Origin: Clostridia bacterium
Lineage (GTDB): Bacteria > Bacillota > Clostridia > Oscillospirales > CAG-272
Reading direction: 5' to 3'
Length of the DNA: 64,000 bases
Assembly (NCBI GenBank): GCA_017465885.1
Contig: JAFTVG010000021.1
Span: 46,500-110,499 of the forward strand
The translations under genes and the position numbers were made by a program. Positions 5,703-59,105 of this stretch are shown piece by piece (the first letter of the stretch is position 1; every line of letters begins with the position of its first letter). Below the pieces are notes generated by a model. That model saw only the letters and a list, made by a program, of their open reading frames with translations, did not search any database and was not told the DNA's origin.

Positions 5703-6233
5703 ATGATTTGTAAATCTTGCGGTGCGGAAAACGCAGAGGGCTCTGCATTCTGCGCAACCTGCGGCGCTTCTTTGGCGGAAAAGAATGAGGCGGTGGCGGC
5801 ACAGCAGCCTGCAGCCGAAGTGCCTGTAGCCGAAGCCCCTGCAGCCGAAGCTCCTGCAGCCGAAGTGCCTGTAGCCGAAGTGCCTGCAGCCGAAGTGCCT
5901 GTAAGCGAGGTACCCGCGAAGCCCTCCAAGGTGATGGGCATCGTTTCCACCGTTCTTGGCGCACTTTCTCTGCTGGGTAATGCGAGCTGCACTTGTATGT
6001 GCGGATGCCTGGGAGGTTTTCCTGCCATCGTGATGGGCATCGTCGGTCTGGTGCTCAGCATTATGGCAATGGTGAAGGCAAAGAACGCAGGCACCAAGGA
6101 CACCCTTGCCATCGTGGGCTTGGTGCTGTCCATCCTGTCCTTGCTGCTCTGTCTGCTGGTGTGCATCGTGAACGCCGTTATCGGCGGTGCGGGCGCGCTG
6201 ATGGAAAGTATGCAGGGCGGAAAGAGATATTAA
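5703..6233 (+). CDS. Zinc-ribbon membrane protein with P(A/V)AE(V/A) repeat linker
   Basis: CKSC...CATC N-terminus, GGAGG RBS, TTGCAA/TATAAT promoter upstream, ~3 TM helices. Confidence 0.82.
   Translation: MICKSCGAENAEGSAFCATCGASLAEKNEAVAAQQPAAEVPVAEAPAAEAPAAEVPVAEVPAAEVPVSEVPAKPSKVMGIVSTVLGALSLLGNASCTCMCGCLGGFPAIVMGIVGLVLSIMAMVKAKNAGTKDTLAIVGLVLSILSLLLCLLVCIVNAVIGGAGALMESMQGGKRY
5808..5910 (+). repeat. 15-bp coding tandem repeat (~7 copies, CCTGYAGCCGAAGYN)
   Basis: Direct inspection; encodes PAAEV/PVAEA repeats. Confidence 0.85.
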
Positions 6234-18620: not shown

Positions 18621-18695
18621 GCCTACCCGAAAGGATTCGAACCTTCGACCTTCAGAGTCGGAGTCTGACGCGCTATCCAGCTGTGCCACGGGTAG
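18619..18695 (-). tRNA. tRNA-Arg (CCG)
   Basis: Cloverleaf CTACCCG/CGGGTAG, anticodon arm TCAGA-CTCCGAC-TCTGA, GGTTCGAATCC, encoded CCA. Confidence 0.96.
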
Positions 18696-54285: not shown

Positions 54286-54515
54286 ATCGTTCCTTTCGTG
54301 GAGCAAGGAGCCTTGCTTTTTGATGTGCTCATTATACTATGAAAGATCGGTTTTGTCAAGAGCGGCAAAAATCCGCCCTGCCGCGAAAGGGTGATGCACT
54401 TAGCGGAGAAATTTTATAAGGGGTATGGGCATAGCCCTAACTTGCAATAAAAACAGAAGAGAGAGTAACGCGGTTACAAAATTCCGTGAAGCTCTCTCTC
54501 TTTTTCTGCTTTTTT

Positions 54516-54721
54516 AGTGATATTCTTTGCTCTTACAAAGAGTGATATTATTGCTACCGCAATAGTGATATTGAAGCCTTGCGGCTTCAGTGATATTCTA
54601 TTCGCCCTTCAAACTCGCGAAGCGAATACCACTCGGCGCGAGCCGAATATCACTGCGTAGCAATATCACTCGCCACAGGCGAATAGAACTGGCGTGATAC
54701 TCCGATAAGAGTATCACGCCA
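54516..54721. repeat. Symmetric multi-hairpin element C (core AGTGATATT) with adjacent hairpin
   Basis: Cores at 54516, 54541, 54564, 54589; inverted cores at 54625, 54646, 54662, 54682; small hairpins between cores. Confidence 0.88.
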
Positions 54722-54772
54722 AAGCGGCAGGGCGTTTTTGTTCGTCGGGAGAACTCTCGGCTTGCGGTAAGG

Positions 54773-55192
54773 TCAAGCCAGCGCGATGGTGCGGGTGGCG
54801 GGCTCTTCCTTCTTTTTCTTAGGTAGGGTCAGAGTGAGCACACCGTTTTCAAGACGTCCCTCGATTCCTTCCTCGTCGATTGCAGAAAGGTCGAAGTGTC
54901 TTTCCATCTTGCCGTAGTGTCTTTCTCTGAAGAGATAGCCGCCCTCCTTCTGCTCCTCCTTTTCTTCCTTCTTTTCAGCGCTGACGGTGAGCACGCCGTC
55001 CTTCACGCTGACGCTTACCTCCTCCTTCTTGTAGCCGGGAAGATCTGCCTCGATGAGGAACCTGTCCCCCTCGTCCTTCACATCGGTACGAAATGCCGTG
55101 GGAAGGGAAGCGGACTTGACGGGTGCAAAGAAGGGATCGTCAAACAGGGAAAAAGGGGTGAAAGGGGTGTAGGGGCGCATAGAATTCAACAT
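54773..55192 (-). CDS. Hsp20 small heat-shock protein
   Basis: FRTDV, EADLPG, RERHYG.MER.F, NGVLTLTLPK; GGAGG RBS. Confidence 0.94.
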   Translation of the reverse strand: MLNSMRPYTPFTPFSLFDDPFFAPVKSASLPTAFRTDVKDEGDRFLIEADLPGYKKEEVSVSVKDGVLTVSAEKKEEKEEQKEGGYLFRERHYGKMERHFDLSAIDEEGIEGRLENGVLTLTLPKKKKEEPATRTIALA

Positions 55193-55388
55193 AATCAATA
55201 CCTCCGTGATTCGTTTTGCGTTGTGCGATCCGCTTGGGAACGGGTCGCTTTTTGGATTGGCTTTGTTTTTTTGTTTTTGTTTCGCATCGACGTTTTTCGA
55301 TCGGACTTTTTCTTTCGTTCCGATCTTGTCTACAGTATACACCTGCTTTGTGAAATAGGAATGCTTTTTTTATGTCCTTTTTGTAAAT

Positions 55389-57483: not shown

Positions 57484-57561
57484 GGTGGAATTGGCGCAGT
57501 TGGCTAGCGCGTCAGATTGTGGCTCTGAAGGCCGTGGGTTCGAATCCCATATTCCACCCCA
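57484..57561 (+). tRNA. tRNA-His (GTG)
   Basis: G-1 plus GTGGAAT/ATTCCAC, TCAGA-TTGTGGC-TCTGA, C73, CCA. Confidence 0.95.
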
Positions 57562-57597
57562 GAAAACGACAAGTTTCGACAGAAACTTGTCGTTTTC
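57562..57597 (+). terminator. Hairpin/terminator after tRNA-His
   Basis: GAAAACGACAAGTTTC-GACA-GAAACTTGTCGTTTTC. Confidence 0.75.
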
Positions 57598-57770
57598 AAC
57601 TAAATCCACCCTTGCGGGTGGGTGAAATCATCTTCGACGATGAAATCCAACTTCGTTGGATGAAATTCGCCTCGACGGCGAGTGGGTGGATTTAATTTCA
57701 TCTGAGGCAGAGCCGAAGATTTCATCAGCGTTAGCTGATTTCATCCTTGCATCAGCAAGGATTTCATTTT
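57597..57770. repeat. Symmetric multi-hairpin element A (core GATGAAATC)
   Basis: TGAAAT at 57623, 57641, 57661 (degenerate at 57601); ATTTCA at 57695, 57719, 57738, 57761; hairpins between cores. Confidence 0.88.
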
Positions 57771-57869
57771 TTGCAAGAGTTCGAAGTCATACGCGAAAAC
57801 GGCAACAATATCTTTTTCGTAGCCCATAGACAACAAAAAGCGCACCTTTGTCGGTAGACAAAGGTGACT

Positions 57870-58050
57870 TTTTTCAATGATATCCGTTCCTTGCGGAACG
57901 GGTGATATATCTTCGATATGATATCGCTCTACGAGCGATGATATATGCCTTCGGCATATAAAGGAACGGATATTATATCATGCTTGCGAAGCAAGCATAT
58001 CATACGGCTCGCCGTATATCATATCGCGTTAGCGATATATCATTGAAAAA
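57870..58050. repeat. Symmetric multi-hairpin element B (core TGATAT) with 14-bp terminal inverted repeat
   Basis: TGATAT at 57878, 57903, 57919, 57939; ATATCA at 57975, 57997, 58016, 58037; ends TTTTTCAATGATAT / ATATCATTGAAAAA. Confidence 0.9.
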
Positions 58051-58093
58051 CATAACGTTTTATGATATAATACTGATGAAAGAAGGTGTGTTT

Positions 58094-58447
58094 ATGTCCG
58101 AAAACAAATTACTTGACTTGTCTTTTGAATTCGCAGTTGCAATTGTTAATCTTGTTGACGGTGTAACTGCACCCAAAAGTTCCTATATGACCGATCAGCT
58201 TGCAAGATCCGGCACTTCTGTTGGCGCGAATATCCACGAAGCGCAATACGCACAAAGCAAAAAAGATTTTGTTGCAAAGTTGGAAATTGCTTTGAAAGAA
58301 TCCAACGAAACAAGCTATTGGCTAAAACTTATGTTTGAAACCAAACGGATAGATAATGCAACATATCAACACGCAGAGAAACTTTGTGGCAATATCCGCA
58401 GGCTTTTGATCGCATCTTGTAAAACCGCAAAGGAGAATGTAAAATGA
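58094..58447 (+). CDS. Four-helix-bundle protein (23S rRNA IVS protein / Avd-like family)
   Basis: SFEFAV.IV, QLARSGTSVGANIHEA, S.KDF..KLEIALKE..ET.YWL signature. Confidence 0.92.
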   Translation: MSENKLLDLSFEFAVAIVNLVDGVTAPKSSYMTDQLARSGTSVGANIHEAQYAQSKKDFVAKLEIALKESNETSYWLKLMFETKRIDNATYQHAEKLCGNIRRLLIASCKTAKENVK

Positions 58448-58820
58448 ACTTCTTTACAAAATTGTTTAAGAAGAAATTAAAGGAAGAAACACCGCCAATG
58501 CCCTCTTGGGAAACTGTCGTTGAAATGATGTACACAAACATCTGGATGCATTTTCCGATGAAATTGCAAAAGTGATTTATTCAAAAGATCGCTCGATGAG
58601 GTATGTTGTACTGAAGGACGAAAATGGTTTTTTCACTTATCAGCTGGAAGCAATCTATCAGTATGATGAAGACGAATGGAAATATATTTGTTCACACGAC
58701 AATGTGCTACCTGCTATTTGGGAGCCATTTAGAGGAATTGTCGGGAAATCCGTTTTTGAAAATATAGACGAATTGCTTAATGAATTAAAAGCAGAACCGG
58801 AGTATAAGCAATATTTTTGA
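58444..58820 (+). pseudogene. Frameshifted hypothetical gene coupled to the four-helix-bundle gene
   Basis: ATG overlaps the upstream TGA; one base added near 58534 would join MNFFTKLF...EMMY to the 58572-58820 ORF. Confidence 0.6.
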
Positions 58821-58882
58821 TTGCTACACTACTTTTGCTTACTTTTACCTTAATTATGCTCCGTTTGGTTACTCTTTCGCAG

Positions 58883-58972
58883 AAAAAAGCACACATTTGT
58901 CTACCAAGACAATGTGTGCTTTTTTGAATGAAATGCGCCTGCGGCGCTTCGCTAATGAAGCAGCCTTCGGCA
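58883..58972. repeat. Hairpin plus truncated multi-hairpin element D
   Basis: AAAAAAGCACACATT..TGTC-TACC..GACAATGTGTGCTTTTTT then GAATGAAAT-GCGCC/GGCGC, GCTTCGC, AATGAAG, GCC-TTC-GGC. Confidence 0.55.
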
Positions 58973-59105
58973 AAGGAGGTGCAAAGGATGTGAGCTTACG
59001 CCCAATGAGATTGCACTCCCCCAAAGCGGTGCATTGACTTCCTTCTCATTTTGTGGTATACTACCGATATACGGTGTGTAAATGATCGACGAAAGGATGA
59101 AACCT

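Follow-up and report, generated by a model that had tools for sequence, protein, structure and literature searches.

What is the AT-rich DNA that follows a tRNA-His gene of a Clostridia bacterium (assembly GCA_017465885.1, order Oscillospirales), and how did it come to lie there? The window analysed here is a stretch of 64,000 nucleotides of contig JAFTVG010000021.1. Three tRNA genes (Gly, Arg and His, predicted with ARAGORN) precede the interval in question, the last of them ending at 57561. An initial annotation had described the interval, 57562-58972, as three modules that each consist of a long hairpin and a multi-hairpin element (A, B and a stump, D). These modules are present, AT-rich and strongly structured, and the GC content is 0.37-0.44 over 57600-59099 compared with 0.52-0.62 in the coding flanks. 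In our reading, to which we give a probability of roughly 0.6, three small mobile cassettes landed successively at the 3´ end of the tRNA-His gene and now form a stack.

The source genome (G000) is a 1.9 Mb draft, and the window lies on its contig C6; other C numbers without a prefix also denote contigs of G000. All genomes compared are draft metagenome-assembled genomes, which are broken at the repeats described here. The multi-hairpin elements are termed heads, and one half of each matches the Rfam motif Gut-1. The gene behind head B encodes a four-helix-bundle (4HB) protein, which is termed the leader, and the open reading frame (ORF) that follows it is termed the cargo. The interval comprises the following features.

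57485..57561, + strand: tRNA-His gene with CCA end, the anchor of the stack (ARAGORN; Rfam tRNA, 66.9 bits)
57562..57597, + strand: hairpin H1 of the A-run/T-run terminator type, directly after the CCA (16-nt arms, 100% complementary)
57598..57772, + strand: head A, a two-armed Gut-1 element with the word TGAAAT and then ATTTCA (Rfam match, fold, copies)
57773..57834, + strand: trailer type 2, about 62 nt, which closes the gene-less cassette 1 (the 'spacer' of the initial annotation; recurrent module)
57835..57874, + strand: hairpin H2, which opens the conserved B unit (18-nt arms, 83% complementary)
57875..58045, + strand: head B, a two-armed Gut-1 element with TGATAT four times, then ATATCA four times, and seven hairpins (Rfam match, alignment)
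58043..58071, + strand: promoter-like site TTGAAA-17 nt-TATAAT, the -35 of which overlaps the last word of head B (read from the sequence)
58094..58447, + strand: leader gene for the 4HB protein, PF05635/TIGR02436, Avd-like, 117 aa (profile matches)
58430..58447, + strand: coupling junction, an AAGGAG ribosome-binding site and an ATG that overlaps the TGA stop, where homology between loci stops
58444..58820, + strand: cargo ORF2, broken by a 1-nt deletion near 58533 (comparison with genome G004)
58821..58881, + strand: trailer type 1, about 60 nt, which ends ..CTTTCGCA just ahead of H3 (motif counts)
58883..58925, + strand: hairpin H3 (15-nt arms, 100% complementary; 77% identical to H2)
58926..58971, + strand: stump D, the first two word-plus-hairpin units of a decayed head (likewise read from the sequence)

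Cassette 1 is composed of H1, head A and trailer type 2 and is gene-less. Cassette 2 is composed of H2, head B, the promoter-like site, the 4HB gene, ORF2 and trailer type 1; it is complete, with a frameshifted cargo. Cassette 3 is a stump that comprises H3 and D.

Probable cassette units behind tRNA genes

The leader frame at 58094-58447 matches PF05635 (E 2.9e-24) and TIGR02436 (E 2.9e-27), and the closest solved structure is an uncharacterised protein (PDB 2rld, E 1.7e-26). Relatives of the leader were drawn from a collection that holds one genome per species and covers several named genera, and the locus counts in this and the next two paragraphs refer to the best 80 of 556 confirmed stretches. 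Copies of the window 4HB protein in other species are 84-97% identical to it. A head of the TGATAT type is located within 260 nt upstream of the 4HB gene in 65 of the 74 loci with room for it. A co-oriented tRNA gene, always with a CCA end, terminates 215-300 nt before the 4HB gene in 53 of 68 loci with room, and 15 tRNA isotypes are used. Homology of these loci to the window begins at the hairpin (at 57835, 57857 or 57869) and stops at 58447-58448, the stop codon of the 4HB gene. The hairpin begins 0-3 nt past the CCA, and the nucleotides adjacent to the CCA join its outer pairs. A near-identical copy of H2 is found behind different tRNA genes in other species, and H1-like hairpins stand behind other tRNA genes of G000, where they precede two different element types.

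Whole units recur behind many kinds of tRNA. The same leader with a NUDIX cargo is found behind tRNA-Gly, tRNA-Leu and tRNA-Arg, and with a nucleotidyltransferase cargo behind tRNA-His, tRNA-Met and tRNA-Tyr. The modules recombine at fixed joints, namely CCA to hairpin, T-run to head, ATGA to cargo and trailer to hairpin. The third of these joints lies at the end of the 4HB gene, where AAGGAG, a few bases and ATGA provide a ribosome-binding site and a start codon that overlaps the stop. Of 76 intact copies, 53 end in this way, and overlaps of the GTGA or TAATG type take its place in several of the rest. With a ribosome-binding site and an overlapping ATG in its last codons, the leader would be translationally coupled to the cargo.

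Past the 4HB stop codon, the cargo differs at every locus, so that the variable gene content proposed in the initial annotation is borne out: one and the same leader precedes many kinds of gene. When 20 cargos were scanned against Pfam, 12 passed the cut-off (GNAT twice, SAM methyltransferase twice, histidine phosphatase, NUDIX, nucleotidyltransferase, MazG, MatE, LMW phosphatase, ASCH and DUF2691), three gave only borderline matches and five gave none. No family was found for ORF2 in profile searches. The two-gene unit of the window is real, as had been suggested: the PF05635 gene is followed by an ORF2 that is intact in the same-genus genome G004, relative to which the window copy is 1 nt short, and RNA-library contigs of other organisms have an extra G behind 58533. 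Homologues of ORF2 occur in 9 of 301 genomes of the order, where they lie behind the same 4HB gene, behind a 53%-identical one, 1 kb behind a 41%-identical one, or in places that lack a 4HB gene.

Trailer type 1 extends for about 60 nt after the cargo and ends in YTTTYRCA just before the next hairpin. This end motif is found in 22 of 40 cargo-bearing loci and in 13 of 200 control windows, and 13 of the 40 loci, but none of the 200 controls, contain the two trailer motifs in the proper order. The window trailer as a BLAST probe recovers 6 of the 40 loci, and a stricter motif pattern recovers 5. Trailer type 2 had been taken for the 3´ remnant of a gene. It is instead a recurrent module, with matches at C13, C31 and C36 and, by eye, at C37, and in one locus (L108) it directly follows the stop codon of a cargo.

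Two proposals for the borders of the unit were dropped. Duplication of the whole hairpin on insertion was rejected, as upstream and downstream hairpins of one locus are 0.56 alike compared with 0.59 between loci (14 loci). No terminal inverted repeats were seen by eye on the tRNA-type unit, and its left end shares about 8 of 20 bases (by eye) with the reversed trailer.

The order of arrival can be read in part from relatives. G004 has the 4HB-ORF2-H3-D part in common with the window, including H3 and the same stump D, and on a contig of another organism the CCA of tRNA-His is joined directly to a hairpin and head B. Both observations are consistent with A, which adjoins the tRNA, being the latest arrival.

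Together these loci suggest a cassette with a fixed order: a terminator-type hairpin, a head of about 170 nt, a consensus-like promoter, the 4HB leader, a coupled cargo and a short trailer. The site TTGAAA-17-TATAAT downstream of head B is the putative promoter of the cassette, and its -35 hexamer is nearly invariant across the 45 sequences of the head B alignment described below. An arrangement of hairpin, head, promoter and leader would insulate the cargo and ensure its expression. As far as the cassettes themselves are concerned, the proposal of the initial annotation is largely right, with the correction that the structured element stands at the head of the cassette, upstream of the promoter, and does not form an attC-like tail.

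The head elements: DNA fold-back or RNA

The first halves of both heads match Gut-1 (RF01706) on the + strand over model positions 1-77, head A at 57597-57671 with 73.6 bits and head B at 57875-57949 with 62.9 bits, where the gathering score is 50 bits. The second halves match on the - strand below this cut-off (A at 57690-57769 with 40.4 bits; B with 44.2 bits). The heads are therefore not wholly undescribed, because Rfam lists one half of each as Gut-1. The initial annotation had supposed an undescribed system, which holds for the two-armed structure and the cassette setting and fails for the first halves. Gut-1 is listed in Weinberg et al. (2010; PMC2864571), where human gut metagenomes are its only source and it is rated as a non-coding RNA that probably stands alone. 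The model is matched end to end and above the curated score by half 1 of both A and B, and the three hairpins joined by a GUGAAAU-like word and the origin from gut Clostridia agree with the account given there. In contrast, Gut-1 is here one half of a two-armed dispersed repeat that heads gene cassettes, and its word is variable (TGATAT, TGAAGT, TGATGT and others).

Each element contains about four copies of a 6-7 nt word, followed by about four copies of its reverse complement, and short hairpins of free sequence separate neighbouring copies. In the middle of the element, a second copy of the 3´ arm of the first hairpin is able to pair with the element start. Folded as RNA, head A has a z-score of -6.3, and none of 200 shuffles folds as well; folded as DNA, head B has z-scores of -7.6 (+ strand) and -8.1 (- strand), again with none of 200 shuffles as good in either case. 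Its outer words pair across both halves in the minimum-energy fold. Head B was aligned with 44 copies from other species (45 sequences). The words are invariant in this alignment, and the 34 pairs of the hairpins are formed in 97.3% of cells compared with 87.8% in shuffles (0 of 500 shuffles as high) and with 24-45% when the pairing is slid. At 19 of the 34 pairs both sides vary in a compensatory manner, and 0 of 500 shuffles reach the observed values. The copies of head A at C37 and C36 are 86-88% identical.

A motif-free scan for such arrays gave 29 in the genome and none in three shuffled genomes, which excludes chance for the arrays. The layout of a word followed by its reverse complement is also specific, because 95 of 758 repeated-word chains have an adjacent reverse-complement chain, compared with 9 plain-reverse and 2 complement partners. 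At least seven different words occur in the genome, each with its matching reverse complement. The word scan also gave a weak array elsewhere in the window, at 5863-5994 (G000:C6:52362-52493), with AAGTGC three times and its reverse complement twice, which may be due to chance.

Two further candidates at head A and its trailer were examined. A short open frame on the - strand at 57741-57845 (MGYEKDIV..; MGYKKDIF.. in other copies) runs into the last hairpin of head A. It lacks a ribosome-binding site, its frame is broken in one copy (by eye), and it is probably no gene. A promoter on the - strand of the trailer that could yield an antisense RNA of the head has a conserved -35 and a poor -10 in 3 of 5 copies (by eye), and this candidate was dropped.

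The paired words and the covarying hairpins would both be explained if one strand of the head folds back on itself, with each word paired to its complement and the hairpins protruding. Such a fold-back agrees with the minimum-energy fold of B, and it would fit the link between word and 4HB protein described below. The bias of mismatches and loops bears on the strand involved. Among non-Watson-Crick pairs, half 2 has 46 G.T on the + strand and 5 A.C, and half 1 has 10 G.T and 9 A.C; the excess in half 2 is owed largely to two helix-end pairs. The loop motif TTCG outnumbers CGAA by 167 to 9 in half 1, and the ratio is 8 to 44 in half 2 (70 oriented elements, largely of one family).

Alternatively, the heads could be structured RNA genes or 3´-trailer modules (Gut-1) that are produced by read-through from the upstream tRNA or gene and serve as a 3´-end protector, a processing site or a protein sponge, with incidental neighbour genes. 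The Gut-1 matches above the curated cut-off, the stem covariation and the G.U-type wobbles on the sense strand of half 2 all favour an RNA, as do loops of the C(UUCG)G type (CTTCGG 41 times, its reverse complement 5 times). The upstream tRNA is co-oriented in 53 of 53 cases. In a sister subfamily of the elements (word GTGATAT), which is described in the next section, 10 of 11 copies lie behind a co-oriented open frame of at least 126 aa, and the head lacks a preceding T-run and is followed by a terminator. The element sequence is also present in RNA-library contigs (Logan; four runs from two studies), which alone are no proof of transcription, given possible multi-copy sequence and DNA carry-over: their summed depth is 25-820 in one study and 0-70 in the other over 57540-58103, and about 0-21 over the 4HB and ORF2 coding sequence. 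In the window, however, each head is separated from the tRNA by a strong terminator hairpin, and the promoter of the cassette comes after the head. A one-way RNA also accounts less well for the arrays of reverse-complement words and for the mirrored bias of the loops than does a symmetric DNA site or a fold-back. The copy number, about 37 per genome and 0 to 51 matches in relatives, is the behaviour of a mobile repeat and not of a housekeeping RNA, and the word tracks the adjacent protein subfamily. We regard this RNA reading of the heads as unlikely.

Gain, loss and the proposed 4HB partner

The initial annotation had named agreement of the elements with breakpoints of gain and loss as a test, and such agreement was observed. 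At the tRNA-Cys locus, G000 has a hairpin with a TGAAAT head, G005 has the same hairpin with a GTGATAT head, G004 has another hairpin with an ATGAAGC head and a 4HB gene, and G006 and G001 have no head. The tRNA-His locus also differs among members of the genus.

Two side observations concern these loci. In G005 (L033, G005:C194, reverse strand), a different Gut-1 head comes after tRNA-His, and behind this head lie a degenerate spacer and a hairpin. These are succeeded, some 300 nt past the tRNA gene, by a GC-rich, structured-looking stretch of about 350 nt, which precedes a gene on the opposite strand and is possibly a remnant of a ribozyme, an intron or a riboswitch. In G001 (L154, G001:C119, reverse strand), the first ~50 nt of tRNA-Cys are repeated about 130 nt ahead of the complete gene, from which unrelated sequence separates them; insertions leave serial partial tRNA copies of this type.

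The sister subfamily provides clean insertion borders. Of its 11 copies in G000, nine are placed inside a host terminator, whose two arms they separate. Gene-less inserts measure 269-388 nt and those with a gene 888-970 nt; they have terminal inverted repeats of about 20 nt, which are flanked by TT..(A)TTT. A site that is occupied in G000, with 935 nt between the arms, is vacant in G005, where there is an 85-nt intergenic stretch with a plain terminator. One copy lies in the window, where it splits the terminator arms (54374-54384 and 54724-54734) of an Hsp20-like gene (54773-55342, - strand). A conserved GC-rich, hairpin-like stretch (GGGGTATGGGC..GCCCTATGCC) was also noticed in terminator-loop cassettes, either between promoter and cargo or near the right end.

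54374-54734, - strand: gene-less cassette of the GTGATAT subfamily, 339 nt (54385-54723), with terminal inverted repeats of about 20 nt, in the window
G000:C37:62470-62560 (L009 local ~1715-1790), C12:~89040 and C18:~53230: GC-rich stretch of terminator-loop cassettes

The heads are dispersed. The 1.9 Mb genome has 46 Gut-1 matches, 13 of them above the cut-off, and these matches and the word scan together give about 37 places, many of which lie at contig ends. Across 61 genomes of the order, 38 have 1-51 Gut-1 matches each and the rest have none; inside the genus the number is 5 to 31 in four genomes and zero in two. On C37, a near-copy of H1, A and the spacer lies just behind an open frame for a serine recombinase (G000:C37:17554-19050). 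This frame is probably a broken large serine recombinase, because it contains a stop at 18660 and seems to continue in another frame.

Such dispersal could also be that of selfish repeats of the miniature inverted-repeat transposable element (MITE) or repetitive extragenic palindrome (REP) kind, which insert themselves at terminators, while the genes would be ordinary accessory genes of a tRNA-linked hot spot that form no cassette unit. Gene-less copies exceed 4HB genes (about 37 places and 7 genes), and the sister subfamily has terminal inverted repeats of about 20 nt as well as gene-less forms of 269-388 nt in terminator loops. In one locus (L077) a head lies inside the T-run of a trailer, G000 and G005 share a hairpin and differ in heads at tRNA-Cys, and on a contig of another organism precisely the 172-nt core of A is missing, although the shorter side of this contig spans only 23 nt. 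Against this, the unit of hairpin, head, promoter, 4HB gene and cargo recurs with sharp ends behind different tRNAs in different species, 65 of 74 loci keep head and 4HB gene side by side, a matching transposase was not found, and the Y1 family does not track the elements. Selfish repeats of this kind seem unlikely.

The stack of cassettes raises the question of what moves it. As the initial annotation had noted for integrases and transposases, no recombinase is present within the interval, and the genome has its tyrosine and serine recombinases at other places; PF00589 matches were found on C7, C1, C33 and C20 and none on the window contig C6. Co-occurrence of the elements with HUH/Y1 transposases or reverse transcriptases, which it had named as a test, did not hold across the 61 draft genomes, of which 15 are element-rich (at least 15 Gut-1 matches). 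Y1 transposase (PF01797) and Gut-1 occur together in 15 genomes, Gut-1 alone in 23, Y1 alone in 4 and neither in 19, and Y1 is found in only 6 of the 15 element-rich genomes. For reverse transcriptase, the corresponding numbers are 10, 28, 5 and 18. Neither family tracks the heads, and within the limits of draft genomes mobilisation of the RAYT/IS200 type or by reverse transcriptase is not supported. Of the three families tested, only the 4HB family tracks the elements across genomes: Gut-1 and PF05635 occur together in 33 genomes, Gut-1 alone in 5, PF05635 alone in 4 and neither in 19 (Spearman 0.83), and PF05635 is present in all 15 element-rich genomes. A comparison of the interval with a plasmid collection gave no match, and a comparison with a phage collection gave one weak match, inside the 4HB gene; matches to 3 viral contigs were also obtained.

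The 4HB protein also goes with the word of its head. From 60 4HB loci of relatives, the seven of the genome and four of the 80 B-unit loci, the 31 with a scorable upstream head were kept. The nearest 4HB protein neighbour carries the same head word in 22 of the 31, compared with a mean of 3.2 and a maximum of 12 for shuffled labels, and the proteins are 77% identical within a word type and 52% between types. Head and 4HB protein are proposed as a working pair because hairpins, cargo and tRNA sites shuffle freely and head and 4HB do not. In the mechanism we propose, the fold-back would be a cis site that is read by the cassette's own 4HB protein, and cutting and joining would be performed by an enzyme encoded elsewhere.

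A bolder proposal, which we hold to be doubtful at present, is that head and 4HB are the central parts of a mobile element of a new type, in which an Avd-like protein and not a classical recombinase recognises a word-coded fold-back and guides the cassette to stable hairpins of RNA genes, at their ends or loops (CCA ends of tRNAs, terminator loops and, by extension, helices of 23S rRNA).

Several points weigh against successive cassette insertion. No movement was seen directly, either as a circular junction or as a polymorphism within a strain, and no enzyme was found; Y1 and reverse transcriptases do not track the elements. In G006 an element-free tRNA natively has a hairpin immediately behind its CCA, so that targeting of the CCA may really be targeting of the terminator. 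About half of the cassettes have no recognisable trailer, and the wobble pairs and mirrored loops decide neither the folding strand nor its RNA or DNA nature. The co-occurrence figures overstate the case because related genomes are not independent, and the tie between 4HB and word may be plain linkage because neighbours travel together. Part of the mosaic could be due to homologous exchange between modules, because G000 and G005 share the tRNA-Cys hairpin and differ in heads.

A reading that dispenses with any dedicated mechanism, in which the mosaic arose after transfer by homologous recombination among dispersed modules or from a decayed classical integrase island, accords with junctions that all lie at the edges of conserved modules, with the lack of a linked recombinase and with an ORF2 homologue behind a 4HB only 53% identical to that of the window, yet it is improbable, as exchange cannot shift a unit between tRNA kinds of which 15 isotypes are used, no integrase lies nearby, no copy of the tRNA-His 3´ end was seen at the cassette borders (by eye, with no dedicated search), and the sister subfamily is cleanly inserted in unrelated terminators. 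Successive insertion of cassettes is our preferred account, and none of the findings that the initial annotation had listed as contrary to it was made, namely identical gene content in relatives, elements away from gain or loss breakpoints, or a match to the ends of a known IS or MITE family (no search of an IS database was made).

Known systems and the possible meaning of the cassettes

Integron cassettes are small, mostly single-gene units that are stacked at one entry point and punctuated by attC sites, which conserve fold over sequence. The cassettes behind tRNA-His are likewise small and stacked, with structured sites and a similarly varied accessory cargo. In contrast to integrons, they have no IntI, attI or Pc, and there is no PF00589 match on the window contig. 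The structured site is located at the head, upstream of promoter and leader, whereas attC is located at the cassette tail, and each cassette has its own putative promoter and leader gene, with a tRNA end as the entry point. REP, BIME and REPIN sequences are dispersed extragenic palindromes that are mobilised by RAYT (Y1) transposases. Like these, the heads are palindromes at the 3´ ends of transcription units, occur as inverted pairs and break assemblies. Unlike REPs, they have a free hairpin sequence and a fixed linker word, and many copies go with genes; Y1 genes do not track them. With regard to a tRNA-targeted integrase island, no integrase is present on the contig.

Another parallel is found in ORF-bearing intervening sequences (IVS) of 23S rRNA, for example that of Coxiella burnetii, which is described as a PF05635 gene within an insertion at the apex of a stable hairpin (PMC4990558). 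Both are small, AT-rich, selfish insertions with a PF05635 four-helix-bundle ORF, and the sister subfamily lies in the apical loop of a hairpin with inverted-repeat borders, as that source describes for IVS in helix 45. The stack in the window differs in that it lies behind a tRNA and not in an rRNA helix, with the tRNA 3´ end or a terminator as target, and in that its cassettes carry a promoter, a multi-hairpin head and variable cargo. Gene modules that lack a recombinase of their own and are shuffled between replicons by way of short bounding sites are described for the dif modules of Acinetobacter plasmids, which are moved by the host XerC/D (PMC13141974, PMC12907356). The cassettes share this organisation and differ in their location at chromosomal tRNA ends instead of plasmids and in their structured head and 4HB leader; a dif-like 28-bp site was not seen in them, although no scan for one was made. 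PF05635 is reported to resemble Avd, a small four-helix-bundle accessory protein of diversity-generating retroelements (PMC10053308). G000 differs from such systems in that it has no match to the reverse transcriptase family PF00078, and no pair of template and variable repeats was seen. We found no published description of this cassette system.

If cassette insertion is correct, the orphan Rfam motif Gut-1 would gain a role as a cassette head, and PF05635, which is among the commonest 'hypothetical' small proteins of bacteria, would gain a testable role as a cassette leader. For metagenomics, Gut-1 repeats break assemblies at tRNA genes. The cassettes would constitute a platform that many gut Clostridia share (this leader subfamily alone accounts for 556 confirmed places), that needs no integron integrase and that uses tRNA ends as docking sites, with a logic in common with the intervening sequences of 23S rRNA. 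If the doubtful proposal of a head and 4HB core were also true, rRNA intervening sequences, Gut-1 and the widespread 4HB genes would join into one system that captures and expresses cargo. The cargo is variable and includes acetyl-, methyl- and nucleotidyltransferases and a MATE-type transporter, and the cassettes may therefore represent an overlooked route of gene flow in gut bacteria.

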